Assembly (NCBI GenBank): GCA_942491115.1
Contig: CALNZV010000020.1
Span: forward strand, 896,524-960,523
DNA from: an uncultured Desulfobacteraceae bacterium
GTDB taxonomy: Bacteria; Desulfobacterota; Desulfobacteria; Desulfobacterales; UBA5852
Direction: 5' to 3'
DNA: 64,000 nt
Below are positions 16,960 through 43,216 of this stretch, one piece after another. The number at the start of each line of letters is the position of its first letter. The stretch's first letter is position 1. The translations under genes were made by a program, and so were the position numbers. The notes below the pieces were generated by a model that had not been told where the DNA came from, searched no databases, and saw nothing but the letters and a program-made list of their open reading frames with translations.

Positions 16960-17110
16960 GATACCCTTAAGGGACGCCGCTGCCGAGTGATGTTCCGCGG
17001 CCACCCCCTGTTGATGGAAACCTCCTTGACCATAACTGAATGAACACATAATATTTGGGTTGATGTTTTCCGCGCAATCCCGCGGTTAACGGATGGGGAG
17101 GAAACCCGAC

Positions 17111-23270: not shown

Positions 23271-23983
23271 AGCAGCAGTGCCCCCAAGGTCAGGGCCCCC
23301 AGCAGATGCAGCATGAGCACCACCCGCCGGTGACGGTGATAGCGTTCATTCACCTTTTGAATGATGAGAAGCCCCCCGAATAGTCGCCGCACCCGCTCAA
23401 GGGTGCGGTGGCGCCGGTTGTCCGAGGGGGAATTGCTCTGAAAGGCGATGGCCGGGTAAATCACGTAGGGGGTAACGTCGAGCCCGGCGAGCATGGCATC
23501 GAAGGGTAAACCGTCCCAGGGCTTGTGAACCAGGGTCTGGGCGAATTCCCGGCTCACCCCGTAGCCGTGAGCGAGGCACCGATACCGGGCGCTGCGAACC
23601 CCAGCGCAAGGGGTCTGGTGACTGCCTGAAACCAAGCACCCCAGAAACAGCAGATTCCACTGGGGTAGTGCAGATAGATACTGGGTGCAGGCGGCCAGCC
23701 GTCGTGGGCAGAACTGGTCAAAGACGATGTCGTCCTCGAAGACCACCATGCGTCTGGCACCGGATCCCAGCCCCTTCCGTAGACAGGTCATGTGGGAGTC
23801 GTAGATGCCTGCCTCGCTCCCCTCCGGATGTCTGTCGACAATTAAAAATTCCACCCTGTCTGATAGACCGACCCTGACAAACTGATGCCGGGCGCTTTGC
23901 CGTCGGTCTTCCCGTTCGGCCAAGGAAATGCAATAGAACCGATCGAAAAAGTCCCAGCCGCTGGCATCTGTTCGAGTGGCCAT
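23267..23983 (-). CDS. Glycosyltransferase family 25-like protein with a C-terminal TM helix
   Basis: The pattern FDRFYCISL.ERE.DRR...F...G....VEF...D......G...SH...L......VFEDDIVF resembles GT25 LPS glycosyltransferases. Its stop overlaps the MMPL start. Confidence 0.55.
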   Translation of the reverse strand: MATRTDASGWDFFDRFYCISLAEREDRRQSARHQFVRVGLSDRVEFLIVDRHPEGSEAGIYDSHMTCLRKGLGSGARRMVVFEDDIVFDQFCPRRLAACTQYLSALPQWNLLFLGCLVSGSHQTPCAGVRSARYRCLAHGYGVSREFAQTLVHKPWDGLPFDAMLAGLDVTPYVIYPAIAFQSNSPSDNRRHRTLERVRRLFGGLLIIQKVNERYHRHRRVVLMLHLLGALTLGALLL

Positions 23984-24575: not shown

Positions 24576-25439
24576 TCAGGGGGCGCGGACCATCCCCGAT
24601 GGCGGCGTCAGTCTACCGCCGCTCACATCCCGCATGGACAGTCCGGCGACGGTCTCTCTCAGCCGACCCCACCCATCCAGAATCCACAAATCGACGGTGA
24701 AACCGGTAGAATCAATCTCCCTGGGCTTGACGCAACAGTCATAGACCAAGCCCCCTTGCAGGGGGGCATTCACTACACGCCAGTCGATAGCCACCGGAAA
24801 ACCGACGATTCCCGCATACCGTTGCCCCCACACACACGCGACATGAAAAGCGGTGTCCAGGGGAAATCCCTTGCCCAGCAGTCGAACGGTTCTGTCTCCG
24901 GAGACCTCAGGGCTGAGAAGGCGGGCCCCCGCTCCCTCGGAAGATAGCGACACCGGTGATCCCAGGTTCCGGTAGGCGGGCCCGAAGGGCACGAAGTCTC
25001 TGTATATCGTTTCCGGACTTATGGACTCCTCGGTCCGGAGGGCGGCGGGGTCGACAGGCGGTATCGAAGGCGGTGGGGATTCCCTTGAAAACACTGCCCG
25101 TGCATGGGTTTTGGTGCGGGTGATGGCGGCCCCCGGAGCCCGAGAACGGGTGACAAGAGCGGCACCCAACGCACCGCTTTCCAGGACCTCCAGATCGACA
25201 TACGCACCGATCCGGGGGCTGTGGTGATCGAGGTAAAGGAACTTCTCAAAGCGAATCGCCCTCATGACCGTTACCGGGCGGTCCGGATCATGGGATCGAA
25301 CGCCTCGCGCGAGCACTTCCATGGCGTCCACAGCCGGAAGGACCGCCCTGCCCAACAGATGATGGTCGCCGGCATAGTCAGGGATGCCGAAGGTCGCGGG
25401 AAGCCGCTCCCTCCGGCCTAGATCGGGAATATGTCCCAT
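24576..25439 (-). CDS. Free-standing polyketide-synthase-type dehydratase (double hotdog, PS-DH)
   Basis: The N-terminal half has HHLLGRAVLP (HxxxGxxxxP) and the C-terminal half has DTAFH (DxxxH/Q). ATG at 25439 (MGHIPDL...). Confidence 0.75.
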   Translation of the reverse strand: MGHIPDLGRRERLPATFGIPDYAGDHHLLGRAVLPAVDAMEVLARGVRSHDPDRPVTVMRAIRFEKFLYLDHHSPRIGAYVDLEVLESGALGAALVTRSRAPGAAITRTKTHARAVFSRESPPPSIPPVDPAALRTEESISPETIYRDFVPFGPAYRNLGSPVSLSSEGAGARLLSPEVSGDRTVRLLGKGFPLDTAFHVACVWGQRYAGIVGFPVAIDWRVVNAPLQGGLVYDCCVKPREIDSTGFTVDLWILDGWGRLRETVAGLSMRDVSGGRLTPPSGMVRAP

Positions 25440-25897
25440 AGCTGCACCGTCTTCTGGTCCACTTCTACCGGGATGCCGGAGGCATTGACCGCGCAGTGGC
25501 GGGTGAATCCCCGACACACGATATCGGTACCGTCGGTTCGGGTGATGACGTAGTCGAACTGTAGCCGAACCCGCTCCATGGGACCCGGTCGGGTATGAAT
25601 GTACATGGCGTCATCGTAGTGGAGGGGCAGATAATAGTCGATGTCCACCTTGATGATGGGGTACACATACCCGCTTTCCTCGATCTCGCGGTAAGGGTAG
25701 GCCGCATCCCTCATCAAAGACGCCCGTCCGTATTCAAAATACCGCAGATAGTTGGCATGATACACCACCTGACTCCTATCAGTGTCGGCATACAGGGTCC
25801 GCAGGTCGCATCGATGCCACACCCGGCCGCTGATCGTCTCCCGCACGTAGCAAGGATGGCTGTTCAGGGGGTCGGTGACAAACGGTTTGGGTTTCAC
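25418..25897 (-). CDS. Acyl-CoA/ACP thioesterase, YbgC/4HBT hotdog family
   Basis: Motifs are DTDRSQVVYHANYLRYFEYGR and the YbgC-like core. GTG start with a GAGGAG RBS, 4 nt after the KS stop. Confidence 0.85.
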   Translation of the reverse strand: MKPKPFVTDPLNSHPCYVRETISGRVWHRCDLRTLYADTDRSQVVYHANYLRYFEYGRASLMRDAAYPYREIEESGYVYPIIKVDIDYYLPLHYDDAMYIHTRPGPMERVRLQFDYVITRTDGTDIVCRGFTRHCAVNASGIPVEVDQKTVQLWDIFPI

Positions 25898-25900
25898 ACG

Positions 25901-27166
25901 CTACACTCCTCTGAAAACCAGACAGCAGTTGGTCCCCCCGAAACCGAAAGCGTTGGTCAGCACCGTCTCGTGGGGATGGCGGCGGGAATGGTTCGGGACC
26001 ACATCCACATCGGCCAAGGCCGGGTCCGGAATATGGTTGATCGTCGGCAGCAACAGCCCCTGTTGCATACCCTCGATGGCCAGGACCGCTTCGACCGCCG
26101 CCGCCGCACCGAGGGAATGACCCAGCTGGGATTTGTTGGAAGATACCGGCAGCCGCGCCAGAAGGGGACCGAACACCGTCCGCAGGCTTTCGATTTCAAC
26201 CAGGTCCCCCTTGCTGGTGGATGTGCCGTGGGCGTTGACATAGTGGATGTCAGCGGGGGAGAGGCCGGCATCGTCGATGGCTTCGTGAATGGCTCGAACC
26301 ACCGTCGTTTGATTGGGCCGCGTAAAGTGATGGGCATCCGAGGTCCAGCCGACACCGAGGACCTCCGCTTTGGGGGACAACCCCGACGATTGCATCACCT
26401 CTTCGGCGGCCAGAACCAGCACGCCTCCTCCCTCCGCCAGCACGAACCCCTTCCGGTCGATACTGAAGGGCCTTGAGGCCTGGCCCGGATCCCCATGGGC
26501 CCGGTCATTGGAGCCCACCTTGATGGTTGCCCACATATTGGCAAACCCCTGGATAATTTCAGGGACAAGGCACATTTCCACCCCGCCGGCGAGGGCAAAG
26601 TCACAGTCCCCGTCGCGAATCATTCGGGCGCCCAAGGCAATGGCATGATTCCCGGAAGCACAGGCACCCTGGGGGGAAAAGATGGGGCCGGTAAATCCCA
26701 GCATCATACTGGCCTTTCCGGCCGGCACGTTGGCGCAGAGATTGGGCAGGAGATAGGGGCTGATCTTTGTGGGCCCATGGCGGGTGTAGTTTTCCATGGC
26801 CACTCGGTAAGCGTCGGTACCGTTGAGGGCGGAGCCGACCAAGCAGGCGGTTCTGGGACCGGCGTCCCCGTCGATGACCAGGCGGGCATGACTCAGGGCC
26901 CGTTTGCAGAGGACCATGGTCAGGTGGACGAAGCTCGCCTCCCAGTTACCGGCATCCCGCCCGCCGATCCCGTCGATGGCGCGCGGATCCCAATCCGGGA
27001 TTTCCCCAACCACATTGCTCCGTGTGTCCACCCGACAGCGGGTAAGGGTCCTGAATCCGCTCTCGCCCCGCACCGCCCGCTCCCAGGTCCGCTCCAAATC
27101 GTTACCAAGGGCGGTGGCGACATCGTAGCCGACAACGAAAACCCGTCTATTGAGAGGTGCTTTCAT
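25901..27166 (-). CDS. Beta-ketoacyl-ACP synthase (KS), catalytically complete
   Basis: Active-site Cys (GACASGNHAI), His (NAHGTSTSKGD) and His (LGHSLGAAAA). ATG at 27166 (MKAPLNRRVFVVG...). Confidence 0.9.
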   Translation of the reverse strand: MKAPLNRRVFVVGYDVATALGNDLERTWERAVRGESGFRTLTRCRVDTRSNVVGEIPDWDPRAIDGIGGRDAGNWEASFVHLTMVLCKRALSHARLVIDGDAGPRTACLVGSALNGTDAYRVAMENYTRHGPTKISPYLLPNLCANVPAGKASMMLGFTGPIFSPQGACASGNHAIALGARMIRDGDCDFALAGGVEMCLVPEIIQGFANMWATIKVGSNDRAHGDPGQASRPFSIDRKGFVLAEGGGVLVLAAEEVMQSSGLSPKAEVLGVGWTSDAHHFTRPNQTTVVRAIHEAIDDAGLSPADIHYVNAHGTSTSKGDLVEIESLRTVFGPLLARLPVSSNKSQLGHSLGAAAAVEAVLAIEGMQQGLLLPTINHIPDPALADVDVVPNHSRRHPHETVLTNAFGFGGTNCCLVFRGV

Positions 27167-27182
27167 GGTTCCACCAGGGGGC

Positions 27183-28433
27183 TCAGCCCCATCTCCGAAA
27201 AACGATGCATGCGTTGCAGCCTCCGAAACCAAAGGCGTTTTTGAGCACATATTCCTGTTGGACACTCCGGCTGCCTTCGGCCACACAGTCGATGTCAAGT
27301 TCCGGGTCGGGCCTGTGGTTGATCGTCGGCGGCAGCCGCTGATCCTCGAGTCCCCGAAGGGCAAAAATGGCTTCGATGGCGCTGGAAGCCCCCATGGCAT
27401 GGCCGGTCAGGGATTTGTTGGCGGTTACCGGCGGCAGTTGCCCACTGAAAACCGCTTTCAAGGCCTCCACCTCCACCTTGTCGCCGACCCGGGTCGACGT
27501 GGCATGGGCGTTGATCGCATCGATGCGATCGGGGCCGACACCCGCATCGGATATGGCCTCGGCAATGCATCGAGTAACGGTTTCCGGATAGGGCGAGACA
27601 AAGTGGTGGGCGTCCGAGGTCATGGACCATCCGGCAACCCCACAAGAATAGGGCAATCCGTGGGTGTTGGCGAACTCCGGCGTGGCGATGACGATGCATC
27701 CGGCCCCTTCTGAAATCACGAACCCCCTGCGGCCGGCGGAAAAGGGGCGACTGGCCCGCTCCGGAGGCTCAGGCGGAGCGCCTTCTTTAGGGACGTAGGC
27801 CCCGTTCATCGTCGCAAACCCGGCAACGATGGGTTCGACGAGGGCCATGTCCACCGCACCGCAGATGGCCACGTCCGCTCGGCCCAGAGCCAGCAGCATG
27901 GTACCGACGATGACCGAAGTGACCCCCGTTGCGCAAGCGGTGATGGTGGCGCTGATGGGCCCCCTTGCTCCCGTCCACATGGACACGACGCCCCCGACCA
28001 TGTTAATGCAGGCATTGGGGTTGGACCACGGCATGGGAAGCCGTCCCTCGGCGATCCACCGCCGGTCCGCCGCCAATAAGGCGTCCACTCCCCCCACAGC
28101 GGAACTGTAGGTCACCGCCACGCGGGGAGCTATTTCCGGCGTGATGATCAGGCCGCTTCTCTCCAGGGCGCGGTGAACGGTCAGAAGTGCAACCTTGAAA
28201 ATCGGTGACGGCCACCTTGCCTGCTCTCTTGCCGACAGAAACGGATAGGGCAAATGGTCGATGGCGTCGATCTCTCCGGCGATTTGCACCGGAAAATCCC
28301 TGTCGGTTGGGAACCGTGTCAGGAGGCCGACGCCGCTCCGGCCCTCGAGGGCCCGTTGCCATTGGTCCTCGAGCTCTATTCCCAAAGGAGATACGGCGTC
28401 GTAACCGATAATGACGGGGGCATTGGTTTTCAT
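27183..28433 (-). CDS. Beta-ketoacyl-ACP synthase (KS), catalytically complete
   Basis: Active-site Cys (TACATGVTS), His (NAHATSTRVGD) and His (TGHAMGASSA). It sits in tandem with the preceding KS. Confidence 0.9.
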   Translation of the reverse strand: MKTNAPVIIGYDAVSPLGIELEDQWQRALEGRSGVGLLTRFPTDRDFPVQIAGEIDAIDHLPYPFLSAREQARWPSPIFKVALLTVHRALERSGLIITPEIAPRVAVTYSSAVGGVDALLAADRRWIAEGRLPMPWSNPNACINMVGGVVSMWTGARGPISATITACATGVTSVIVGTMLLALGRADVAICGAVDMALVEPIVAGFATMNGAYVPKEGAPPEPPERASRPFSAGRRGFVISEGAGCIVIATPEFANTHGLPYSCGVAGWSMTSDAHHFVSPYPETVTRCIAEAISDAGVGPDRIDAINAHATSTRVGDKVEVEALKAVFSGQLPPVTANKSLTGHAMGASSAIEAIFALRGLEDQRLPPTINHRPDPELDIDCVAEGSRSVQQEYVLKNAFGFGGCNACIVFRRWG

Positions 28434-28456: not shown

Positions 28457-29455
28457 CTACCAGGGAATGAACTGGTAGAGTTTGGCAAACATCTCATAGA
28501 TTTCGATCCAGTTTTGAAGATCCCGGGAGCTTCTCATGTGGGCCCGCTTGTTCACCATCACCCAGCTCATATGGGCCGCTCCGTCCTTGCAGGTCGTGCA
28601 GTCCCGGGTTTCGGAGGTGCAGCATCGGTGCATGGTGTCGAGATCGGAGGCCCACCGGATGAAATTGGTCAGCCGTTTGGGTTTAGGGGATCGATCGTCG
28701 AGGGGGTCGGAAACCGAGGGGCATTCCATCCAGCCAAACCGCCGATCCAGCATTTTCCCGGTGGTGATGATTTCATGGTAATACTTGGAGGAGATGACGG
28801 TATCGGGGTAGGCCTCCAGCATCTCATCCATTTCATCACGGATGGCCGACAGTTCCCCTGTTGTCCAACTGAATCCGTCGACCCCTTCGTCGTTGGACAG
28901 CAGCTGCATGTGCACCTTGAGGCCCGCATCTCGAATTTTTCGAATAACGTTCTCGGTTTTGCCGATCTGTTTAGGGGTAATGGTAAAGAGATAATAGGTG
29001 TGTGGGTCCCCTTCGTAGTTCTTGCTGGAGACGGCAAACGTGTCTTTCCCCCGAAGGGTCGTTTCGTCCGCCTCGTCGCCCCAGAGGGAAATGCCGATCA
29101 TCATGTCGGGAAACCGGTCCCTGGGAACCTTGATCAACCCGTTGGTAGCGCAGAAAGTGGGCAGCCGCCGGTAGAATGCCTCCACCCGGTCAAGGCAGAG
29201 GGTCGGCTCGCCGCCAATAAGAATGGCCAGATTGACCCCTCGCCCCATCTCCTTGTCGACGAATGCTTCCCATTGACGGAGGTCGGTTTCCTCGGGGGCG
29301 GCCTCGTGCTCGCCGGATGAAAAGAAGAAGCACCCCTTGCAGCGCAGATTGCAGCGGTTGGTGACGTCGTAGATCGAGCTTCTGATGTTAAGCTTGGAGA
29401 TGCGCTTGTAGCGTTCGTACCAGTGTGCGTCCAGAAGGGAACTGACGGTTTTCAT
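28457..29455 (-). CDS. Radical SAM protein (paralog B of a tandem pair), C-terminal CC-x6-DC-xx-C motif
   Basis: CNLRCKGC (CxxxCxxC) at ~aa 35 and a C-terminal RCCTSETRDCTTC. AGGAG RBS, ATG at 29455. Confidence 0.85.
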   Translation of the reverse strand: MKTVSSLLDAHWYERYKRISKLNIRSSIYDVTNRCNLRCKGCFFFSSGEHEAAPEETDLRQWEAFVDKEMGRGVNLAILIGGEPTLCLDRVEAFYRRLPTFCATNGLIKVPRDRFPDMMIGISLWGDEADETTLRGKDTFAVSSKNYEGDPHTYYLFTITPKQIGKTENVIRKIRDAGLKVHMQLLSNDEGVDGFSWTTGELSAIRDEMDEMLEAYPDTVISSKYYHEIITTGKMLDRRFGWMECPSVSDPLDDRSPKPKRLTNFIRWASDLDTMHRCCTSETRDCTTCKDGAAHMSWVMVNKRAHMRSSRDLQNWIEIYEMFAKLYQFIPW

Positions 29456-29466
29456 CGGTGGCTCCT

Positions 29467-30591
29467 TCAGTCGGAGGGCAGCTCGAAGCCGGGAGGAGAT
29501 ATCGGGACGCTGCACAAGGGCGATCCCTTGATATAGGGCATCACCCATACAGCCAGATAATTGTCCACATAGTCAAGCCAAGAGCGGAAGGTGGCCGGGT
29601 CGACGGCATGGCGGAACAGCCGTGCCGTCACGATCGCGCTTCCGGCGGCATAGTGGCGGCAGTCATGGCAGTCGGTGTCCGGAACGCAGCAGGCGGCGTC
29701 CCGGTTCCAGGTCAGATTTGCCCGATACTGGCGGAAGGACCGGCTCAACCCGATGGTGGCGGACGGCTGGCGACGGGGATAGGGGCATCCGAACAGGCTG
29801 TGAAGCCCCATGGGATGCGTATGGACGACGGCATTGTATCGGGAGAACAAGACATGGTCGGGGAACGCCGCCAGCAGACGGTCCATCGTCTTCCGGGTGT
29901 TGGCGAGGGAGGCGTCGGTATGCCCGAGATCACCCCTGTAGCCGACCGGGGCCGAAAACATGTTGAAAGTCACCCGGCAATCTTCTTGAGCCAGACGGCC
30001 GACGACCTCCTCGGATTCGGAAATGTTGTACCGGGTAAAGGTGTAGACGAACACGGCACGGGAATCCCCCCGGTAGTTGTCGATCTGTCGATCCAGCATG
30101 TGCTTTGCGTTTCGGACCCGGAGGCTGGTCCGGTCATTGCCCCATACGGATAGGTGAATTCGGTAGCCGATGTCGTCCGGAAACCGCTTCAGTCCGTTGG
30201 TGGCGATGGCGCCCAAAGGAATAGCGTCGTAACAGACACGGCACCGGTCGATGGCAAGGGAGGGCTCCGCCCCGGCAAGCACCACGAATGTGACGCCCCG
30301 TGCTTTCTCCGCGGCCATGAGGGCTCGCCAATCGCCGATGGCCTCGTTGTCGGTGACGAGCTGCTTTTCGCCTTCGTAATAGTAGCATCCGTCGCATCGG
30401 ATGTTGCACCGGGACGTCATGTCGTAAGTGGACTCCCGAAGAAAAAAATAGCGACGAACCTTTTCCCACCGGTTTTTCACCTCGGGAGCTGAAATGAGAT
30501 CGCTGAATTTGCAGGGCGGATCCACTTGGTTGCCAGCTGATTGCCGAAAGGGTTGAGGTGCCGTGGTCACGATCGCTTCCGTTCCCCGCAT
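29467..30591 (-). CDS. Radical SAM protein (paralog A of a tandem pair), C-terminal CC-x5-DC-xx-C motif
   Basis: CNIRCDGC motif and a C-terminal ACCVPDTDCHDC. It can be aligned by eye with the downstream paralog over its whole length (STYDMTSRCNIRCDGCYYY vs SIYDVTNRCNLRCKGCFFF, ATNGL, WG, NY.GD). Confidence 0.85.
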   Translation of the reverse strand: MRGTEAIVTTAPQPFRQSAGNQVDPPCKFSDLISAPEVKNRWEKVRRYFFLRESTYDMTSRCNIRCDGCYYYEGEKQLVTDNEAIGDWRALMAAEKARGVTFVVLAGAEPSLAIDRCRVCYDAIPLGAIATNGLKRFPDDIGYRIHLSVWGNDRTSLRVRNAKHMLDRQIDNYRGDSRAVFVYTFTRYNISESEEVVGRLAQEDCRVTFNMFSAPVGYRGDLGHTDASLANTRKTMDRLLAAFPDHVLFSRYNAVVHTHPMGLHSLFGCPYPRRQPSATIGLSRSFRQYRANLTWNRDAACCVPDTDCHDCRHYAAGSAIVTARLFRHAVDPATFRSWLDYVDNYLAVWVMPYIKGSPLCSVPISPPGFELPSD

Positions 30592-30592
30592 G

Positions 30593-30853
30593 TCACGCCG
30601 CCAGCTTCTGCTGCAGATATTCCGCTATCAGGCGAACGGTTGTCAGTTTGGGGTAATCGTCTTCGTCAATCCTGACACTGTAGTCATCCCTGAGAACCAG
30701 GGCAACCGTTGCCAGATCCATGCTGTCGATCCCCACCTCGTCGACGAGGTCGATATCCGGATCGAAAGTTTCGGGGGTGACATCTTCAAGTTTCAATTCA
30801 TTGATCATGATTTCTGCCACGCGCAGAATGGTTTGGTCCAGATCTGTCGACAT
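30593..30853 (-). CDS. Acyl carrier protein
   Basis: 86 aa, acidic, with phosphopantetheine Ser motif GIDSMDLATV. Confidence 0.88.
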   Translation of the reverse strand: MSTDLDQTILRVAEIMINELKLEDVTPETFDPDIDLVDEVGIDSMDLATVALVLRDDYSVRIDEDDYPKLTTVRLIAEYLQQKLAA

Positions 30854-30920: not shown

Positions 30921-31328
30921 TCAAGGCACCGGCCGTTCGAGTTCCATGATGCCCGAGCAGCAAAGCTCCCCCCGGCTGAATAGTTTAAAGGAATAGGCTT
31001 GCCCACTCTCGTCGATGGGCAAGGCCTCGATGGATAGGGTATCGTCCGGGTGTATGGCCAGCTTGAATCGAACCCTTCGCAGTCGGGATACCCGGGCAGT
31101 ATTGCCAGTGTGACGCCCCAGCATCTCCTCGACCAGGCACAGTTGAGCGACACCGGGCAGAATCGGCTCTTGTGGGAAATGGCCGTCGAACCAGACCGCA
31201 TCTTCCGGTATCTTCCTTTCGGATCGAATCGGCTCCGGGGACAAGGGGCGGGGCGGTCGTGGTGGTTCCAAAGCCATATTGCTCCATGTGTCGACGGCTG
31301 GCAGCGGGCCCTGAACTGGGGGTCTCAT
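30921..31328 (-). CDS. FabA/FabZ-type 3-hydroxyacyl-ACP dehydratase (ApeI-like hotdog)
   Basis: Motif FDGHFPQEPILPGV (catalytic His). It starts 4 nt after the B12-rSAM stop. Confidence 0.8.
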   Translation of the reverse strand: MRPPVQGPLPAVDTWSNMALEPPRPPRPLSPEPIRSERKIPEDAVWFDGHFPQEPILPGVAQLCLVEEMLGRHTGNTARVSRLRRVRFKLAIHPDDTLSIEALPIDESGQAYSFKLFSRGELCCSGIMELERPVP

Positions 31329-31331
31329 CTG

Positions 31332-32681
31332 CTAGCACCTAAGCATTTCCCAAAGAGGGCCTTTATACCCTTTTTCATAGAGTCGAAGCAAGGTCCGGGC
31401 CGTCTCCTGCCCACCGGATCCGATCACCCAGTTCGGCCGGTCTTTCCCTGCAGCCTCCAGCTGCCGGTGAATCGCCCGGCTGTCGACGAACGGGGAGCGG
31501 TAGAACACCGGCGACAGAAGATCCTGATCGACCGTCACCTGCCCTTCTTTTAGGGCCCGGTCATAGAGTGCGGTATTGGGATAAATCCTCATACCGCAGA
31601 AAAAAAACAGCACACAGTTCCTCAACCCCTGAGCGGTCTCCAGGGTGTCGTCGAGAGTCTCCTGGGTTTCTCCCGGTCCTCCGAGTAGCAGGTAGTGGGC
31701 CACATGGAGACGGGACGCCAGCGCGGACCGATGGGCGTCCAGGGCCTCCTGCCGACGAAAAGGCTTCCCGTAGGCTTCCAGAACCGGGTTGCAGAACGAC
31801 TCGGTCCCGAATTCCACATGGGTCAGGCCAGCGCTCCTCAGCCTTTCGAAATACCGGTCGGGCATCCGGTTCGGAATAAAAAAGGCTCCCCAGGGAATGG
31901 AAAGCCCTGATTTACGGAAGTGTTCTGCAACCGATAGGCTGTGATCGATATCGGCGTTGAAGGCGGAATCGGTGATGAACAGATAGGCGGCCCCCGCCCG
32001 CTGAAGAGCCATGGCCGTATCGGCCACCTCTTCGGGGTCGATGAGCCGCAGCCGACGTCCTTCGATGTGGGGGTAGGTGCAGTAGATGCAGCGAAAACAG
32101 CACCCTCTGTGGGTCTGGAGGTTCAGCATCCCCCCCTTGTTGAGGTAGAAACCCAAATGGGCCGTTTCCGGATCGAACCGACGGTGAAAGGAACGGGTCA
32201 GGGGACGGGGGACATCGACCCCTTCCGAAGCCACCATGACCCCGGTCAGCAGTCGGGGATCCTCACCCTTTTCCAGGGCGTCGACCAGACGGACCAAGCG
32301 CTCTCCTTCCCCCACAATGCCGTAGTCGGCTCCCAGCGCCCCCATCATCTGGGATGGGAAAATGGTAAAGCCGCTGCCACCGAGTACGATCGGAGCCCCA
32401 CTGGCAGCTTTGAGCTCACCGATCATCTTCCGGTAGCCGTCCATGAATCCTTTGGGGTCCTGGGCCTCGGTGTTGTCCACATTCCGGATCGACACACCGA
32501 TCAGGCCGGGATCAAACCCCCGCACCTGGCCACTGAGATCCGCCATGGACGACAGGGTATTCACGTCCATGATCCGGACCTCGTGGCGGTCTCCTATGGC
32601 CCCGGCGACATAATCCAACCCCAGGGGATAGACCGGATAGGGGTCGATGGAAGTGTTTGCGGAAACCAGCAGTATTCTCAT
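31332..32681 (-). CDS. Cobalamin-binding-domain (class B) radical SAM protein
   Basis: The N-terminus MRILLVSANT...PLGLDYVAG is a Rossmann-like B12-binding-type domain, followed by HRGCCFRCIYC (CxxxCxxC). Its ATG overlaps the KS-CLF stop (ATGA). Confidence 0.85.
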   Translation of the reverse strand: MRILLVSANTSIDPYPVYPLGLDYVAGAIGDRHEVRIMDVNTLSSMADLSGQVRGFDPGLIGVSIRNVDNTEAQDPKGFMDGYRKMIGELKAASGAPIVLGGSGFTIFPSQMMGALGADYGIVGEGERLVRLVDALEKGEDPRLLTGVMVASEGVDVPRPLTRSFHRRFDPETAHLGFYLNKGGMLNLQTHRGCCFRCIYCTYPHIEGRRLRLIDPEEVADTAMALQRAGAAYLFITDSAFNADIDHSLSVAEHFRKSGLSIPWGAFFIPNRMPDRYFERLRSAGLTHVEFGTESFCNPVLEAYGKPFRRQEALDAHRSALASRLHVAHYLLLGGPGETQETLDDTLETAQGLRNCVLFFFCGMRIYPNTALYDRALKEGQVTVDQDLLSPVFYRSPFVDSRAIHRQLEAAGKDRPNWVIGSGGQETARTLLRLYEKGYKGPLWEMLRC

Positions 32682-34843
32682 GGGGGAGACACCACGACGG
32701 CAGAGACGACCTGCCCCAGTCCGAGCACGAGAATCGATCCACTGACGGCATTGATTCCAAGCCGAGGCGGCCGGGGTCGGAACGATCGCCGTTTGTCCAC
32801 CAGGGATGCCGCCAATACCGTGGCCACGGCGGATGCGGCGGCATAGTTCCCGGTCAGTTCACGATAGTCGATCCGGTGGTCGCTGTAGCCGGTCAAACGG
32901 GAAAACGCCTTCAGTTGATTCTGGGCGCTGTCGGTTTCTGCCGCCGGGATTCCCGCCAGCAGGAGGCCGAACCGGTTCTTGACCCCTGTCCGCCCTCCCA
33001 GACGCTTCACCAGCTCGTCCACAGAAGGGGGTCCGTCCAGGCCGATCTCGATGTGGACGGTCTCGACCGTCGGGGCCCCGGGGATCGCCTCCCGGGTCAG
33101 TACCAGAGCCCCACCGCCATCCGACGGATCCCCATCGGCGGATACCGACGAGTCGAATAGGGGCGAGAGAACCGGATGGCCTTCGTCGGCGCCGACCACC
33201 AGAACCGCCCCTGCGTCGGGAGCCAACAGCTCGGCGGATAAGAGGGCCTGCTCAAAGGAGTCGTTGCCGCCGGTGAGAGTCAAATTGACCCCCTTCGCAC
33301 CGGTCATCATGGCCACCTGGCCAGCAGGCGCATTGTGCACGGAACCGATAAAATCCGTTGGGCTGGCAAACTGTTCGCCGCTCTCGAAAAGGGCGGTAAG
33401 AAAATCGTGGGTCTCCGACAGCGATCCCCAAGCCGTTCCGGCGAATACCGCTTCGATCGGACCTGGGAAATCGGTGTGTTTGATGGCTTCAGCAGCCAGT
33501 ACCATGGTCATCAGAGATAGCCGTTTGACACGGCGAATGGCTGGGCTTGGCATCATCCTGCCCACCTCAGCGGCCGGGTATCGTCCCCGGCAGGATTTCC
33601 GGAGCCGGATCCGATCAAGGGTTTCAAGGGTCATACCGGCCCCGGTAATGGCAGACCACCCCGCTACCCGAAGCCGACCGTCGTCAGGGGTGTCGATTTT
33701 CCGCCGGTCCGGGTTACTGCGACCAACCACCACGGCCCCGTTGTTTCCTCCGAAACCGAATGCGTTGACGAGGATCTTTTCCGGTCGGATCCGAAGCGGC
33801 GCCGCCAAGGGCTCGACGCCAAGGGCCGGGTCCGGCACCCGGCAGCCGCTGTTGGCGGGGATCACCCCCCGGTCGATGGATAGAGCCGCCATCACCGTTC
33901 CGATGGCACCGGCGGCGGCAAGGCTGTGCCCCGTCGCCCCCTTGACCGAAGAAAACGGAGGCATTCTGTCACCGAAAAGAGAACGCACGGCACCCATCTC
34001 TATGCGGTCGTTGTCGATAGTGCCGGTGCCATGGAGATGAATGGCATCGATGTCCCCGGCCTCAAGACCCGCCCGGTCCAAGGCCAGCCGCATCGCAGAC
34101 AGAGCCCCTTCACCCTCCGGATGGGGTAGGGTCGGATGGAAGGCATCGCAGCTTAAGCCGGCACCCATCAATTCGATCCGATCACAGGCCGCTTCGGAGG
34201 CCTCAAGCAGGCACATGGCCGCCCCTTCCGCCACCGAGAGGCCTCGGCGATCCGCATCCAGCGGCCTGGCACCCAACGGATCGATCAGTTTCAGAGATCT
34301 AAACCCATAGTAGGTCAGGCGGCACAGGGAGTCCACACCTCCGACAAGCACTCGCTTGGCCCGACCGGCTCTCAACAACGCCAGGGCCAGAGCCAGGGCC
34401 GACACCCCGGAGGAGCAGGCTGTGGTTACCGTCAATACCGGTCCGCGGCAGCGGTAGCGCCGGGCCAGGGCGACCGCCACCGTACCCAGCCCGTGCTGGC
34501 TGAAATCGCCGGCGACGCCGTCGCCGAAACGCAGACGGTCCTCGGTCATGTCCATGCCGCCGGTAGTGCTTCCAACGACGATGACATCAGGGGGCTGCAG
34601 GGGGTGCCCCATGGCTTGGTCCGACGCCTGTATGGCCAACTGATGCGCCACCGGCATTCCTGGCTTCAAAAGACCCGGAGGAGCCTCGCCCACTATTAGG
34701 GGGCGATGGGAGGCGGGTTTGAACCGTGTCAGCGGGGCCAATCCGCTTCGACCCAAGGTCAGCGCCTTGACGGTGTCTTCCAGGCCGCAGCCGAGAGCCG
34801 AAACGATGCCCATACCACGAATATAAACGGGAAGAACGGTCAC
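32678..34843 (-). CDS. Fused beta-ketoacyl synthase + chain-length-factor-like domain (KS-CLF)
   Basis: The N-terminal half is a complete KS (TACSSGVSA, HGTGTIDND, GHSLAAAGA, FGFGGNN). The C-terminal half (about 32681-33690) is KS-like without the Cys (TGGNDSFEQAL) and has SVHNAPAG, typical of ApeC-type CLF. GTG start overlaps the ACP stop. Confidence 0.85.
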   Translation of the reverse strand: MTVLPVYIRGMGIVSALGCGLEDTVKALTLGRSGLAPLTRFKPASHRPLIVGEAPPGLLKPGMPVAHQLAIQASDQAMGHPLQPPDVIVVGSTTGGMDMTEDRLRFGDGVAGDFSQHGLGTVAVALARRYRCRGPVLTVTTACSSGVSALALALALLRAGRAKRVLVGGVDSLCRLTYYGFRSLKLIDPLGARPLDADRRGLSVAEGAAMCLLEASEAACDRIELMGAGLSCDAFHPTLPHPEGEGALSAMRLALDRAGLEAGDIDAIHLHGTGTIDNDRIEMGAVRSLFGDRMPPFSSVKGATGHSLAAAGAIGTVMAALSIDRGVIPANSGCRVPDPALGVEPLAAPLRIRPEKILVNAFGFGGNNGAVVVGRSNPDRRKIDTPDDGRLRVAGWSAITGAGMTLETLDRIRLRKSCRGRYPAAEVGRMMPSPAIRRVKRLSLMTMVLAAEAIKHTDFPGPIEAVFAGTAWGSLSETHDFLTALFESGEQFASPTDFIGSVHNAPAGQVAMMTGAKGVNLTLTGGNDSFEQALLSAELLAPDAGAVLVVGADEGHPVLSPLFDSSVSADGDPSDGGGALVLTREAIPGAPTVETVHIEIGLDGPPSVDELVKRLGGRTGVKNRFGLLLAGIPAAETDSAQNQLKAFSRLTGYSDHRIDYRELTGNYAAASAVATVLAASLVDKRRSFRPRPPRLGINAVSGSILVLGLGQVVSAVVVSPP

Positions 34844-35121
34844 GAGGGAAGCGGGGCCGATGAATTCTTGATGCAGCCGGCCATGGTTCGAAGGGATGCA
34901 AACACCTCGGCGCCCCGCTCTTTGCTGTCGATGACGATTCCGTAGTCTTTTTCCATCATCATCACCAGTTCCAGAACGTCGATGGAATCAATGCCAAGCC
35001 GCCCGCCCACCAAAGGCTCGTCCGGATCGATGCCGTTCGGATCGACAGTGGCAAGATTCAGCAGTTCGACGATTTTTAGTTTCAGCTGGTCTATCAGATC
35101 GTCCATGGCTATCCTGTCCAC
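34840..35121 (-). CDS. Acyl carrier protein
   Basis: 93 aa with Ser motif GIDSIDVLELV. It is the first gene of the minus-strand core operon. Confidence 0.85.
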   Translation of the reverse strand: MDRIAMDDLIDQLKLKIVELLNLATVDPNGIDPDEPLVGGRLGIDSIDVLELVMMMEKDYGIVIDSKERGAEVFASLRTMAGCIKNSSAPLPS

Positions 35122-35260: not shown

Positions 35261-35716
35261 TTGGAAAAAACCGGTTCCATAGTGACGGATCGAGACCATC
35301 CACCCGATCTGGAAGACCTTCTTCCCCACCGAGGGCCCATGCTTCTGATCGACGATATCCTGGCCGTCGACAGAAACCACGCCGTATCCCAAGCAAGGGT
35401 CAGGGATCGATGGCCGGGATTCGACGGATCGACAGTCAGTCCTCTGCTGATCATCGAATTGGTGGCCCAGACCTCCGGACTCAGCAACGGTCTGGATCGA
35501 ATGCTGACGGAAGGGCCCGCTGCCGACAAGAGGGGGTGGATTGTCGGCGTCAAAGAGGCGCGCTTCTCTGCCGATCGGCTGATCCCGGGGACCCTGATCA
35601 TTACCGAAGCCTCCAACAGTTTCAAATTCGAGGGGTTTAGAGAAATCAGAGGCACCTCCAGAATCGGTACCGATATCATCGGAGAGGTCGTGCTTCAAGT
35701 CATGCGCTCGGGGTAG
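35261..35716 (+). CDS. 3-hydroxyacyl-ACP dehydratase, ApeP-like hotdog
   Basis: N-terminal motif LLPHRGPMLLIDDI. TTG start at 35261, with GTG at 35282 as an alternative. Confidence 0.75.
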   Translation: MEKTGSIVTDRDHPPDLEDLLPHRGPMLLIDDILAVDRNHAVSQARVRDRWPGFDGSTVSPLLIIELVAQTSGLSNGLDRMLTEGPAADKRGWIVGVKEARFSADRLIPGTLIITEASNSFKFEGFREIRGTSRIGTDIIGEVVLQVMRSG

Positions 35717-35815
35717 GGCCCGAGACCGGGTATGATGGGCTCGGCGTTGTCATGACCCTAACCCCATCGGAGGGCCCCGGAAACGGCCCCCCGCCATCAC
35801 CATCGGATTCCGCTT

Positions 35816-36559
35816 ATGGTCATGGAAGCCTTCACAGATCCCCCCATCGCCCTGGTAACAGGGGCCAGCAAAGGTATCGGCCGGGCCGTCAGTGTCGAGC
35901 TGGCCCGCAGCGGGTACACGGTGGCCGTCAATTACCGTGCCGATGAAGCGGGCGCTCTCGAGACCGTCTCCCTGGTCACGGCACAGGGTGCCCGGGGACA
36001 GGCCGTCGGCTTTGATGTTACCGACCGCCGCGCCGCCACTGACGCCATTTCCACGATTCTCTCGGAGGTCGGCCCCATCGACGTTCTGATCAATAACGCC
36101 GGCATCACCTCGGACGGCCTTTTTGTCATGATGTCCAAGGAGAGCTGGGACCGGGTGATCCGCACCAGTCTGGACGGTTTTTATCATTGTACGAAGCCTG
36201 TTATCGAATCCATGATCCGTCGGAAGCATGGCAGCATCGTCTCCATAGCCTCGGTGGCCGGTCTGGTGGCCAATCGGGGGCAGTCCAACTACTCAGCCGC
36301 CAAGGCGGGGGTCATTGCGGCCAGCCGCTGCCTGGCCGCAGAGGTGGGTCGACTCGGTATCCGGGTAAACGTGGTGGCGCCGGGACTGATCGATACGGAC
36401 ATGATCAAAGACGCGCCGGTGCCTCACATCAAATCCATGATCCCGATGGCCCGTATCGGCCGGCCGGAGGAGGTGGCACGGGTGGTACGCTTTCTGTGCT
36501 CCGAAGATGCCTCCTATGTCACCGGTCAGGTCATCGGTGTTAATGGCGGCATGGCCTGA
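35816..36559 (+). CDS. fabG: 3-oxoacyl-ACP reductase (SDR, FabG-type ketoreductase)
   Basis: TGASKGIGRA cofactor motif, catalytic NYSAAKAG (YxxxK), 247 aa. Confidence 0.9.
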   Translation: MVMEAFTDPPIALVTGASKGIGRAVSVELARSGYTVAVNYRADEAGALETVSLVTAQGARGQAVGFDVTDRRAATDAISTILSEVGPIDVLINNAGITSDGLFVMMSKESWDRVIRTSLDGFYHCTKPVIESMIRRKHGSIVSIASVAGLVANRGQSNYSAAKAGVIAASRCLAAEVGRLGIRVNVVAPGLIDTDMIKDAPVPHIKSMIPMARIGRPEEVARVVRFLCSEDASYVTGQVIGVNGGMA

Positions 36560-36591
36560 ACCCCCATGCGAGGATTCCTGACAGACGCCGA

Positions 36592-37209
36592 ATGAAACGC
36601 GCTCAAGACATATGGATGCCATTGGGGGCCTCCGCCATTGCATTCCTACTGCTGGTCGGTTGGGCTGACAGCTTCGAGGCCCTGCGCCGGGAAGGCAATG
36701 CCATCCGGTCGATTAGGGCGGAGTTTACCCAGCAGAAAGAAATGCGGATGCTTGTCCGCCCGATCCTCTCCGAGGGCCGGTTTTTCTTCCAGAAACCCGG
36801 TTCCCTGCGCTGGGAATATACCTCCCCCGTAAAAAGCGTTCTGCTCATGCACGACGGATCGGTTCGGCGATTCTTTCAACAGACGGGCGACTGGACCGAA
36901 GACACGACGGCCGGCCTTCAGGCCATGGACGTTGTCATGGAGGAAATCACCCGATGGCTGAACGGCCGATTTGAAGACAATCCGGTCTTCCTGGCCGAAC
37001 TGGTGCCGGGCCGACTGATACGGCTTAGGCCTAAAAGCGATGCCATGGCAGGCATCATACAAAAAATCGAGCTCATTCTTGCCGACCGGCCCGGCGTTCT
37101 CGAGGAGGTCGTTATCTACGAGAGCGAATCTTCCCTGACGCGATTAATTTTCAGCGGATCACGGGTCAACCTTGCCATCCCGGAATGGGTGTTTAAAACG
37201 GCCCAATGA
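36592..37209 (+). CDS. LolA-like outer-membrane lipoprotein carrier protein
   Basis: Signal peptide followed by FTQQKEMRMLVRPILSEGRFFFQKPGSLRWEY, the LolA-fold signature seen in APE clusters. Confidence 0.8.
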   Translation: MKRAQDIWMPLGASAIAFLLLVGWADSFEALRREGNAIRSIRAEFTQQKEMRMLVRPILSEGRFFFQKPGSLRWEYTSPVKSVLLMHDGSVRRFFQQTGDWTEDTTAGLQAMDVVMEEITRWLNGRFEDNPVFLAELVPGRLIRLRPKSDAMAGIIQKIELILADRPGVLEEVVIYESESSLTRLIFSGSRVNLAIPEWVFKTAQ

Positions 37210-37886
37210 GACGACATCTCACCCTTGCTGCTCTTGCGATACTTTGGGTGGCCTGCGCCCGTCCGCCGGCATCGACGACCTTGCCCGGCGATGGAATTCC
37301 CCCCAGTGACTGCACGGCGGGCTTTCCGCCGGGCCGCTGGCAGGTCAGCCACTCCCTGGTCGTCTCTGCGCCGTTCGGCAACACCGCCCAGCTGATCGGG
37401 GTGTCGCTCGTCGATGGGGAGACCCGCCGTTTGGACTGCGCCCTGATGACCGTCGAAGGCCTGATTTTATTCAGCGGCCGGTACGACGGGCAAGTCGTTG
37501 TGGAACGTGCCCTGCCTCCGATGGATCGGCGTGGATTCGCCGAAGGCCTGATGTCCGACCTGAAGCTCATCTTTTTCCGCCCGTCCGCCCCCCTGATGAG
37601 AGCCGCCAGGACGACAGACGGAAACCGGATCTGCCGATATGGCCGCCCCGGTGATCCCCAGACCGATCTGAAACTCACAGCCGACGGGTGGGAGCTTCGC
37701 CGGTACGGCGAGGCATCCCGTCTGGAGAGGACCATAAAAGCCGTCTATTCGCCGGGCCCACTGCCGTCCCCCGGGGGCCGCTTTGCGGACCGTTTGATCC
37801 TCGAGGCCCATGGTACCGGCGCCTACACCATCGACATGGTCCTTGTGGAAGCCGTTCCCCTGCCCCCGGAGGCGCTCCATCAATGA
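37206..37886 (+). CDS. Lipoprotein, DUF3261-like (APE-cluster-associated)
   Basis: Lipobox LWVAC. ATGA overlap with the LolA-like gene. The family call rests on position and overall pattern only. Confidence 0.6.
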   Translation: MRRHLTLAALAILWVACARPPASTTLPGDGIPPSDCTAGFPPGRWQVSHSLVVSAPFGNTAQLIGVSLVDGETRRLDCALMTVEGLILFSGRYDGQVVVERALPPMDRRGFAEGLMSDLKLIFFRPSAPLMRAARTTDGNRICRYGRPGDPQTDLKLTADGWELRRYGEASRLERTIKAVYSPGPLPSPGGRFADRLILEAHGTGAYTIDMVLVEAVPLPPEALHQ

Positions 37887-37933: not shown

Positions 37934-39238
37934 ATGAAGATCTTGCTTATCTATCCCCGGTGGCCAAAGCTCAGCCGCCAAACCGAGTTTCACCTCCCTC
38001 CCCATGGCCCGGTGGTTTTTGCCGCCGCCCTCCCCGGGGATGTGGAGGTCGAATTCATCGACGAGAATCTGGAAACCGTCGATACCGACGCCGATGTCGA
38101 CCTGGTGGCCATTTCCATGATGCTGACCCTTCAAGTCAAACGGGGGTGGGAGATCGCCGGGGCCTTTCGCCGCCGGGGGGTCAAGGTCATCTTCGGGGGC
38201 ATCGCCACGATGCTCCATGCCGAGGAAACCAAGGCCCATGGGGATGCCATCTTCCTGGGAGAGGCTGAGGGACGCATGGAGGAAGTCATCTCCGATTTCA
38301 GGCGTGGACGGTTGAAAGGCGTCTACGACTACCTCGACAGTCCGCCTCCCATCGAATCGGTGGGGACCGCCAGGCGGGATCTGCTGAAGCGGAACCTGTA
38401 CAACTACAAAGGCGTTCAGATGGTGGATCTTGTCCACGCGTCGAGGGGCTGCCGCTACAACTGCTACCCCTGTTGCGTGGCCTTTCTGGGGGGGCGACAG
38501 TTCAGGCCGCGGCCGGTACACAAGGCGGTGGCTGAAATGGCGGCCATCGACAACAACCGCCTGTTCATCGTGGACAACTCACTGGCCCAGGACACCCAGT
38601 GGGAAAAAGATCTCTTCAAGGCCATGATCCCGTTGAAGAAGCATTGGTGCAGCCACCCCATCGAAGACCGTTCCGACATCCTTGACCTGGCCGCCCAGGC
38701 GGGGGCCTGGTATGTCTATCAGGCCGTGTTCGACACTTCCGATCATATTCGGGAGCGCATCCGGCGCTACCATGACCACGGCATCGGCGTGGAGGGAACC
38801 ATTCTTCTTGGACTGGACGACCAGACCGAAGACGATATTCTACGCCTGGTGGATTTTCTGCAGGAGATCGAGCTCGATCTGGCGGAATTCACGGTGCTCA
38901 CTCCGTTTCCCCACACCCAGGCATACAGGGATCTCAACGGGCAGAACCGGATATTCTCCACCGACTGGAACGACTACTCCGCAGAGAAGGTGGTCTTCCA
39001 GCCCAAACACATGTCCCCAGGCCGGCTCCAGGAGCTGCTGGCCTATGCCTGGGACAGCTTCTACCGAGATGAACCCCAGGAAATCAAGATGTTCAAGCTA
39101 CTCCAGCGGGTGGTGGCGAAGGAAAAGGCCCAGGACACCTTCCGTCCTCGCAACCGGGATCTCGCCGGGATGGCCTTCGGCCGAAACACGGCCGGAGACG
39201 TGCCGGATGACCCCGAGGACCGTCAGTCCAGATCCTGA
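37934..39238 (+). CDS. Cobalamin-binding-domain (class B) radical SAM protein
   Basis: MKILLIYPRWP... is a B12-type N-terminal domain, followed by SRGCRYNCYPC (CxxxCxxC). It is the last gene of the plus-strand operon. Confidence 0.85.
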   Translation: MKILLIYPRWPKLSRQTEFHLPPHGPVVFAAALPGDVEVEFIDENLETVDTDADVDLVAISMMLTLQVKRGWEIAGAFRRRGVKVIFGGIATMLHAEETKAHGDAIFLGEAEGRMEEVISDFRRGRLKGVYDYLDSPPPIESVGTARRDLLKRNLYNYKGVQMVDLVHASRGCRYNCYPCCVAFLGGRQFRPRPVHKAVAEMAAIDNNRLFIVDNSLAQDTQWEKDLFKAMIPLKKHWCSHPIEDRSDILDLAAQAGAWYVYQAVFDTSDHIRERIRRYHDHGIGVEGTILLGLDDQTEDDILRLVDFLQEIELDLAEFTVLTPFPHTQAYRDLNGQNRIFSTDWNDYSAEKVVFQPKHMSPGRLQELLAYAWDSFYRDEPQEIKMFKLLQRVVAKEKAQDTFRPRNRDLAGMAFGRNTAGDVPDDPEDRQSRS

Positions 39239-42808: not shown

Positions 42809-42856
42809 CAAACGGCCCTTTCGCCCATCCATTGGAAAACGCCGGCGATTCGGATC

Positions 42857-43120: not shown

Positions 43121-43216
43121 TACCCTCGACCCTTTGGAACAGCGTTGAATGAAAAGCGGTATCATACAACAATTCCCGATTAACGGCAAAAGCCCCCCCT
43201 TCGAACCACCATACTT

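Follow-up and report, generated by a model that had tools for sequence, protein, structure and literature searches.

Known relatives of the enzyme and its cluster

The closest enzyme of solved structure to the protein described here, in both sequence and fold, is TsrM (6WTE/6WTF), a radical S-adenosylmethionine (SAM) tryptophan 2-C-methyltransferase with a thiopeptide context. In TsrM, Arg69 sits beneath the cobalt, blocks lower-axial ligation, and stabilizes cob(I)alamin for polar methyl transfer, while Glu273 ligates the unique iron of the cluster, so that there is no SAM binding or 5'-deoxyadenosyl radical (PMC8992657, PMC13331322). An arginine under the cobalt was found only in TsrM among the solved cobalamin-dependent radical SAM enzymes compared, OxsB having Asn/water and TokK having Trp76 (PMC13331322). 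With regard to gene clusters, the flexirubin cluster of Chitinophaga pinensis has the acyltransferase FlxE followed directly by the dehydratase-like FlxF, with no radical SAM gene, and a class I methyltransferase, FlxJ (PMC3992019). Kuenenia has unusual fatty-acid clusters with radical SAM genes that are syntenic with Desulfotalea (Rattray et al., PMC2649909), and anammox Cluster I (KustE3603-3608) comprises amxACP (an acyl carrier protein, ACP), amxFabZ (a dehydratase), a FabF heterodimer resembling a ketosynthase and chain-length factor (KS/CLF), a phytoene-dehydrogenase-like enzyme, and a cobalamin radical SAM enzyme; the sources on the Kuenenia clusters and on Cluster I all stress that function is unproven. 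Here, we describe a gene of this kind from an uncultured Desulfobacteraceae bacterium, in a stretch of 64,000 nucleotides (contig CALNZV010000020.1, positions 896,524 to 960,523), referred to as the window. This B12-binding/radical SAM gene (31332 to 32681, minus strand; 449 amino acids; ATG start) is part of a ca. 30-kb aryl-polyene/flexirubin-like type II polyketide/fatty-acid synthase cluster (ca. 15.5 to 45 kb) with six radical SAM genes. Such lipid clusters are common in Desulfobacterales that reduce sulfate.

Taken together, family and fold make it almost certain that the product is a class B radical SAM enzyme of TIGR04072, a family that is already named and biochemically uncharacterized. 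Both this membership and the aryl-polyene/flexirubin-like type of the cluster had been missed in an earlier note made on this DNA from the sequence. As to the reaction, we tentatively propose cobalamin-dependent C-methylation of a carrier-bound aryl-polyene intermediate. The gene thus adds a member to a known family in a known cluster type and is not a new kind of system. TIGR04072 is a large family, and membership names the protein without explaining it. The value of the locus lies in its TsrM-like arginine combined with the missing glutamate, in the translational unit formed by ACP, KS-CLF, and radical SAM genes, and in the natural fusions of the family, all of which are described below.

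Family, domains, and fold

The protein scored 399.5 bits against TIGR04072 (rSAM_ladder_B12, "lipid biosynthesis B12-binding/radical SAM protein"; curated cut-off, 360), with residues 2 to 447 aligned to model positions 1 to 441 of 443. The scores for the next NCBIfam families were far under their cut-offs (BzaD, 149 bits; TsrM, 129; HpnJ, 67; BchE, 27). There were 3,876 homologues at an E value of ≤1e-10 in a database clustered at 90% and 654 homologue clusters at 50% identity with E ≤1e-30, and proteins homologous to it from Desulfobacterales, Planctomycetota, and Flammeovirga already bear the family name at NCBI.

The presence of an N-terminal cobalamin-type Rossmann domain in a class B radical SAM enzyme, which the earlier note had read from the N terminus, was borne out by Pfam, NCBIfam, a confident structural model, and fold search alike. 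Pfam placed the cobalamin-binding Rossmann-like domain at residues 15 to 130 (32292 to 32639, minus strand; PF02310, 53.7 bits against a cut-off of 32.1) and the radical SAM core at residues 190 to 349 (31635 to 32114, minus strand; PF04055, 67.1 bits against 29.5). The AlphaFold2 model, built with 49 homologues, had a pLDDT of 90.1 and a pTM of 0.90, with strands and helices alternating through residues 1 to 150, and a Foldseek search against the PDB returned TsrM at the top (E, 1e-28; TMq, 0.84), so that the B12 Rossmann domain plus barrel anticipated for the protein was indeed recovered. The next matches were MgmA, AprD4, OxsB, CysS, and TokK (TMq, 0.65 to 0.74). TsrM was also the best PDB match by sequence (E, 1.8e-27).

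Residue conservation was counted over 126 diverse family representatives plus the query (127 sequences). The cluster motif, C194-x3-C198-x2-C201, is encoded at 32079 to 32102 (minus strand) within the string CCFRCIYC, and its three cysteines were invariant in 127/127 sequences, while C195 was variable. The CFRCIYC motif pointed out previously is therefore present but begins at the variable C195, the true ligand C194 lying one residue earlier.

Cobalt and cluster environments compared with class B enzymes

In a phmmer alignment with TsrM, S-I-R66-N-V-D of the query fell on T-V-R69-N-T-D, making R66 (codon at 32484 to 32486, minus strand) the equivalent of TsrM Arg69. This arginine was kept in 124/127 sequences, and the model places it, as in TsrM, in the loop that comes after strand 3. 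The second informative position is that of Glu273: T-D-S-A240-F-N of the query (ITDSAFN) aligned with T-D-S-E273-F-N of TsrM (TTDSEFN), which puts an alanine (codon at 31962 to 31964, minus strand) where TsrM has its iron ligand. The residues listed at position 240 across the family were V/I/L/T/A/N, mostly V/I/L, and Glu was not among them. Judged from these alignments, the family would surround its cobalt much as TsrM does, and its cluster iron is probably free for SAM.

The likeness to TsrM thus extends to the three-part architecture and to the arginine beneath the cobalt, but the identity is only ca. 22%, the score of 129.4 bits is well below the TIGR04428 cut-off of 500, the query is 126 residues shorter, the glutamate that makes TsrM nonradical is replaced by Ala in the query and by nonacidic residues across the family, and the context of the query is lipid/polyketide rather than thiopeptide. 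The second-best NCBIfam match was BzaD (TIGR04385), a methylase of B12 lower-ligand biosynthesis, over residues 3 to 396; here too, however, the 149 bits are far from the cut-off of 450, indicating that the query is not an orthologue, and there are no bza genes nearby. Hazra et al. are said to have reported in 2015 that BzaD methylates an aromatic sp2 carbon. Orthology to either TsrM or BzaD was rejected, both scores being far under the cut-offs and the Glu ligand being absent.

Precedent for class B methylases acting on pantetheinyl-tethered substrates comes from the solved enzymes CysS (9N1B-D) and TokK (7KDY), although these are distant matches to the query (TMq, 0.67 to 0.68) and have other residues beneath the cobalt. 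Jaw5, which acts with the iterative polyketide synthase Jaw4 in jawsamycin formation, is a radical SAM enzyme that modifies carrier-bound intermediates in step with chain building, but it is HemN-like and not of the B12 type.

Translational coupling and gene order in related loci

The KS-CLF gene upstream is fused (32678 to 34843, minus strand; 721 amino acids), with an N-terminal half (PF00109/PF02801) that has Cys-His-His and a C-terminal half (PF13723) without Cys. Its stop codon (TGA) overlaps the start of the radical SAM gene in an ATGA at 32678 to 32681 (minus strand), the ATG being at 32681 to 32679. This overlap, already noticed from the sequence, was present and recurred with the same spacing of −4 nucleotides in 45/56 related junctions. 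The ATG was taken as the true start because homologues in 79 loci align from residue 1 of the protein. One gene further upstream, the stop of a 93-amino-acid ACP gene (34840 to 35121, minus strand) overlaps the KS-CLF start by 4 nucleotides (GTGA), and the ACP-to-KS-CLF gap was also −4 nucleotides in 39/49 related loci. Through these two consecutive 4-nucleotide overlaps, the radical SAM protein would be produced in a fixed ratio to ACP and KS-CLF, and the overlap supports cotranslation with KS-CLF and, with it, the earlier idea that the enzyme is made in step with chain extension.

The close downstream link that had also been described fared differently. The ApeI/FabZ-like hot-dog dehydratase gene (30921 to 31328, minus strand), whose product is FabA/ApeI-like with a GHFP...PG...EE active-site pattern, does have its first in-frame ATG (31328) 3 nucleotides past the TAG of the radical SAM gene, but this tight link is probably an over-extension of the open reading frame (ORF). 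The 17 codons between this ATG and the second one, at 31277, carry seven nonsynonymous changes and one synonymous change relative to a 91%-identical relative (L086), while GGAGCAATATG, ahead of the second ATG, is unchanged between the window and that relative, whose gene caller chose the second ATG; candidate spacers between the two genes in other loci vary from roughly 10 to 180 nucleotides. Because of this pattern, the dehydratase probably begins at 31277 rather than 31328, which gives a spacer of 54 nucleotides and, therefore, a tight coupling of the radical SAM gene on its upstream side only.

A scan covering a single genome of each species gave 80 loci, nearly all from Desulfobacterales metagenome-assembled genomes (MAGs), in which the radical SAM protein was 48 to 62% identical to the query, and tblastn with the cluster proteins of the window revealed strong synteny. 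Across 79 related loci, the order ACP, KS-CLF, B12-type radical SAM, ApeI/FabZ-like dehydratase, and second ACP was conserved. The gene directly upstream of the radical SAM gene was KS-CLF in 56/79 loci and ACP in 15/79. The linkage of homologues to KS/ACP genes supposed in the earlier note therefore held in 71 of the 79 loci, and it was found in other phyla too. Beyond the second ACP, the main operon carries a pair of non-B12 radical SAM genes, a pair of FabF-like KS genes, and then genes for a thioesterase, a PS-DH-like protein, a GT25 glycosyltransferase, and an MMPL exporter. The syntenic loci also share a divergent operon (ApeP-like hot-dog, ketoreductase, LolA-like, DUF3261-like, and a second B12-type radical SAM gene) and, in addition, a BchE-like third B12-type radical SAM gene, a PlsC-type acyltransferase, a KS, and an LpxL-like acyltransferase.

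Two trivial explanations of the gene were considered and set aside. A chance ORF or pseudogene does not fit a full-length protein with thousands of homologues and a confident fold, and recent horizontal acquisition does not fit a GC content of 0.59 to 0.60 in the cluster and its surroundings alike. Sites resembling promoters and terminators occurred at chance level near the operon, and the window contained no Rfam family, hence no cobalamin riboswitch, and no tRNA.

Distant members and natural fusions

Family representatives at 38 to 42% identity were located in flexirubin/aryl-polyene-type clusters: L081 (a Planctomycetota MAG), L082 (Flammeovirga aprica), L083 (whose protein cluster includes a Bacteroidetes MAG member), and L084. 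Three loci containing a tyrosine ammonia-lyase (TAL) had the order TAL-type lyase, ketoreductase, KS, ACP, LpxL-like acyltransferase, B12-type radical SAM, ApeP-like dehydratase, thioesterase, and KS, which in L082 and L084 goes on with ACP, KS, CLF, LolA, ApeI-like dehydratase, GT2 glycosyltransferase, and an MMPL fusion. In L068, from an unclassified MAG of low GC content, a member with 53% identity comes after a KS and a CLF-like gene and before ACP, ketoreductase, and aromatic lyase genes.

Pairwise comparison matched the proteins of the window to those of the distant clusters. The counterpart of the 93-amino-acid ACP is the ACP beside KS/CLF (50% identity, in L081 and L084), that of the fused KS-CLF is a separate KS and CLF (each ca. 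40% identical to it in L081), and those of the downstream and divergent hot-dog proteins are the ApeI-like and ApeP-like dehydratases, respectively. The resemblance to Ape/Flx clusters comprises KS/CLF, two ACPs, ApeI- and ApeP-like dehydratases, a ketoreductase, a thioesterase, LolA- and DUF3261-like proteins, an MMPL exporter, LpxL- and PlsC-type acyltransferases, and glycosyltransferases, all of which the window also has. The cluster described here differs in that six radical SAM genes are added and in that the window ORFs scanned contained an AMP-binding enzyme but no TAL.

In L082 (10001 to 11377), L083, and L084, the family member occupies the exact place between an FlxE-like acyltransferase and an FlxF/ApeP-like dehydratase. 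Since the C. pinensis cluster has no gene at that position, the radical SAM gene is an optional insertion in a known kind of assembly line, and the pigments of these three organisms may bear an extra modification. No literature link between flexirubins and radical SAM enzymes was found.

Family members also occur as natural fusions, to an LpxL-like acyltransferase (P0129), to an ApeP-like hot-dog protein (P0131), and to a radical SAM-SPASM protein (P0132). The SPASM-type part of the last is 45% identical to the product of the window gene at 17093 to 18220, and in L081 the family member has the same radical SAM-SPASM gene directly upstream, which suggests that the B12-type and SPASM-type enzymes form a functional pair. 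Two giant fusions with five radical SAM domains (P0200 and P0270), from a sugar/carbamoyltransferase cluster and with only partial likeness to the query, were judged unrelated. In P0200 (L085, 10001 to 16996; 2,331 amino acids), one of the five domains is of the SPASM type and four have B12 domains; its surroundings, with carbamoyltransferases, epimerases, and glycosyltransferases, are unrelated to lipid synthesis.

Proposed function and alternatives

The steps of the proposed C-methylation would be as follows. The N-terminal domain would hold base-off cobalamin, whose lower face Arg66 would block, as the equivalent arginine does in TsrM; cob(I)alamin would be methylated by SAM; and the methyl group would then pass to a carbon of an intermediate bound to the carrier protein. 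This intermediate would be either the starter, aryl or otherwise, or the beta-keto/enoyl polyene under extension, which KS-CLF, the ketoreductase, and the ApeI- and ApeP-like dehydratases would make between them. The target would most plausibly be an sp2 or enolizable carbon (in the aryl head, along the polyene, or at the alpha position of a beta-ketoacyl-ACP), because the TsrM and BzaD families methylate electron-rich aromatic carbons and because an arginine under the cobalt favors cob(I)/methyl-cob(III) chemistry. The target at unactivated carbon suggested in the earlier note is accordingly doubtful, as BzaD and TsrM methylate electron-rich sp2 carbons and the arginine is kept. Since Ala/Val stands in place of the glutamate that covers the unique iron in TsrM, the [4Fe-4S] cluster could probably still bind SAM and form a 5'-deoxyadenosyl radical, and radical methylation is therefore as possible as polar methylation.

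The data show the domains, family, fold, conserved residues, synteny, coupling, and fusions; that the enzyme uses cobalamin and transfers a methyl group, that its substrate is bound to ACP, and which carbon is the target are what we infer. The enzyme probably works within the ACP/KS-CLF/dehydratase machinery, an action favored by the family members that occur naturally fused to an ApeP-like dehydratase or an acyltransferase. Taken by itself, methyl transfer is also more likely than not. That family and fold, work within the machinery, and methyl transfer should all hold jointly is a more tentative claim, about evenly balanced at best.

Several considerations weigh against this proposal. Class B is not restricted to methylases, since it includes OxsB, BchE, and HpnJ, and AprD4 has a B12 domain yet uses no cobalamin. 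Class I methyltransferase domains exist in such clusters (the MMPL-methyltransferase fusion and FlxJ of C. pinensis), and a B12-dependent methylase is therefore not obviously needed. Two members lie outside clusters of this type, one with no KS/ACP genes nearby (L087) and the other with only a KS adjacent (L088), and an in-line step and a late tailoring step are indistinguishable by gene adjacency. The radical SAM enzymes that form ladderane rings are unidentified according to reviews, and no experiment links the ladderane-cluster proteins to a product.

The alternatives were weighed against these data. The enzyme could be a nonmethylating radical enzyme, whose 5'-deoxyadenosyl radical would take hydrogen from the polyene or acyl chain for a cobalamin-assisted C-C bond formation, cyclization, or rearrangement, resembling the chemistry of BchE/OxsB or the role proposed for the B12-type radical SAM enzyme of the anammox ladderane cluster. 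The iron site that looks open, with no Glu at the TsrM Glu273 position, would suit such chemistry, as would the heavy radical tailoring suggested by six radical SAM genes, the name of the NCBIfam model (rSAM_ladder_B12), and the same set of parts in anammox Cluster I (ACP, FabZ, KS/CLF heterodimer, and cobalamin radical SAM). However, the nearest characterized relatives are methylases, with BchE (27 bits) and HpnJ (67 bits) well under BzaD and TsrM, and the BchE-like enzyme of the cluster is a separate gene (39223 to 40707; 171 bits to BchE). Members are also found in aerobic Bacteroidota flexirubin-type clusters, from which we know of no cyclized polyene. Ladderanes were not found in the syntenic D. 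psychrophila (PMC2649909) either, and on the whole we consider a nonmethylating reaction unlikely. Tailoring at a late stage, on the pigment or lipid once released or on its membrane anchor, after the manner of the hopanoid methylases HpnP/HpnR on finished lipids, seems rather less likely again. It would agree with the fusion to, and adjacency with, the LpxL-like acyltransferase, presumed to pass the chain to an anchor, with the weaker similarity to HpnR and HpnJ, and with L087 and L088, but it is at odds with the conserved 4-nucleotide coupling to ACP and KS-CLF, with the fusion to an ApeP-like dehydratase, which is an elongation-cycle enzyme, and with a model that is all soluble alpha/beta and has no predicted membrane segment.

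A B12-like domain without cobalamin, as in AprD4, would make the protein a plain radical dehydratase or reductase on a beta-hydroxy or enoyl intermediate. Although AprD4 was among the better structural matches (TMq, 0.66) and no obvious enoyl reductase was seen in the cluster, nearly every family member has the cobalamin-loop motif of TsrM (S/T-x-R-N-x-D) and TsrM is far closer than AprD4 in both sequence and fold, which leaves this option very improbable. One could also imagine an iterative in-line role in which the enzyme partners KS-CLF and ApeI/ApeP and, like Jaw5, modifies the enoyl or beta-keto intermediate on the ACP in every round of elongation or in several; we regard this reading as speculative and, at present, improbable. 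The further step in which, together with the five other radical SAM enzymes, it would yield a class of poly-methylated or cyclized polyene lipids undescribed in sulfate reducers is just as speculative. Desulfosarcina ovata and Flammeovirga, both of them cultured, have members of the family, which would make its chemistry testable.

Relation to ladderane clusters

The cobalamin radical SAM enzymes of anammox bacteria (Kuste3608 in Cluster I, and Kuste2803) share with the window a dedicated ACP, a FabZ-type dehydratase, a KS plus an inactive KS (CLF), and the cobalamin radical SAM enzyme itself. They differ in that no phytoene-dehydrogenase-like gene was present among the window ORFs scanned, that KS and CLF are fused in the window, and that the window has the aryl-polyene hallmarks LolA, MMPL, LpxL-like acyltransferase, glycosyltransferase, and thioesterase. 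At the sequence level, what suggests a tie to the anammox enzymes is the model name rSAM_ladder_B12, the only element that points there. No anammox locus was identifiable among the 20 family representatives sampled for source names, of which the contigs of 7 were examined; these were Planctomycetota contigs of aryl-polyene type or orphan (P0125 and P0139), Bacteroidota contigs of flexirubin type, and a bare pair of radical SAM and KS genes.

Genome mining has labeled clusters in Desulfobacterota and other non-anammox phyla as "ladderane" (PMC9902471), and TIGR04072 members lie in clusters that bear this label. Our results indicate that such clusters are assembly lines of an aryl-polyene/flexirubin-like kind to which radical SAM genes have been added. 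To our knowledge, there is no genetic system for anammox bacteria. If the anammox Cluster I enzyme were a true orthologue, elucidating the enzyme in a culturable Desulfobacterales or in aerobic Flammeovirga would open the radical step of ladderane formation to experiment for the first time.

Other genes of the cluster

Downstream of the dehydratase, between it and the next radical SAM gene, lies the second ACP gene (30593 to 30853, minus strand; 86 amino acids; PF00550, 36.3 bits), matched at ≥35% identity in 65 loci, with 76 to 85% in the examples listed. It is far better conserved than the B12-type radical SAM protein (50 to 62%). Next come the two non-B12 radical SAM genes (28457 to 30591, minus strand; 28457 to 29548 and 29467 to 30591), coding for 363 and 374 amino acids with Cys-rich C-terminal tails. 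Both are retained downstream in nearly all Desulfobacterales loci, the 363-amino-acid protein at 73 to 85% identity, and this protein and the second ACP are the two most conserved of the cluster. Both score under every NCBIfam cut-off, and the Kuste3342/3343 and DP1853/DP1855 pair described by Rattray et al. in 2009 may be their counterparts.

The stretch from 24576 to 28433 (minus strand) holds the two FabF-like KS genes, the 4HBT thioesterase gene, and the PS-DH-like dehydratase gene. As longest ORFs, one of these KS genes (KS_A; 25901 to 27400, minus strand) and the 363-amino-acid radical SAM gene overlap the preceding genes by 218 and 82 nucleotides, respectively. The Pfam and NCBIfam matches of KS_A start at residue 84 or 85, just past Met79, and a start at Met32 removes the overlap of the radical SAM gene, so the true starts are likely internal, at about 27166 and 29455. 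Further downstream (20145 to 23983, minus strand) are the GT25-like glycosyltransferase gene and the gene for an MMPL/RND-type exporter fused to a class I methyltransferase (20145 to 23270, minus strand; 1,041 amino acids), with the methyltransferase domain at the C terminus. MMPL-acyltransferase-methyltransferase fusions were seen in the related Planctomycetota and Bacteroidota clusters L081 and L082.

At that end of the cluster, an AMP-binding enzyme, a radical SAM-SPASM protein, and a polysaccharide deacetylase are encoded between 15544 and 19130, on mixed strands. The top match of the AMP-binding enzyme (15544 to 17049, minus strand) was 4-coumarate-CoA ligase (113.6 bits against a cut-off of 334.7), and it may activate the starter of the cluster; no tyrosine ammonia-lyase/Lyase_aromatic was present among the window ORFs scanned. 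The radical SAM-SPASM gene (17093 to 18220, plus strand; 375 amino acids) is the sixth radical SAM gene of the cluster and lies 13 kb from the B12-type gene.

The divergent operon (35261 to 37886, plus strand) encodes the ApeP-like hot-dog protein, a FabG-type ketoreductase, and the LolA-like and DUF3261-like proteins. The ketoreductase was assigned from sequence motifs and not from the Pfam scan. Pfam scores were below the cut-off for the ApeP-like protein (14.0 bits) and the DUF3261-like protein (15.7 against 22.3), as well as for the ApeI-like dehydratase described above (27 against 28.5); the ApeP-like assignment comes from BLAST matches to the ApeP-like proteins of L081, L082, and L084 (E, 1.5e-11 to 1.6e-05). 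Two more B12-domain radical SAM genes follow (37934 to 40707), one for 434 amino acids (37934 to 39238, plus strand) and one for 494 amino acids (39223 to 40707, minus strand), which are convergent and overlap by 16 nucleotides at their 3' ends. The 494-amino-acid protein is BchE/HpnR-like (171 and 132 bits, below the cut-offs), and the 434-amino-acid one has a weak Pfam match, yet is listed at about 68 to 79% identity across related loci. Genes for a PlsC-type acyltransferase, a KS, an LpxL-like acyltransferase, and a GT2 glycosyltransferase are found at 40767 to 44949 (minus strand). Beside the cluster lies a fused fatty-acid kinase gene (44844 to 46682, minus strand; 612 amino acids), whose product joins a FakA-like part (Dak2 and FakA middle domains) to a FakB-like DegV domain, and LutB/LutC-like genes are located at 47222 to 49355.

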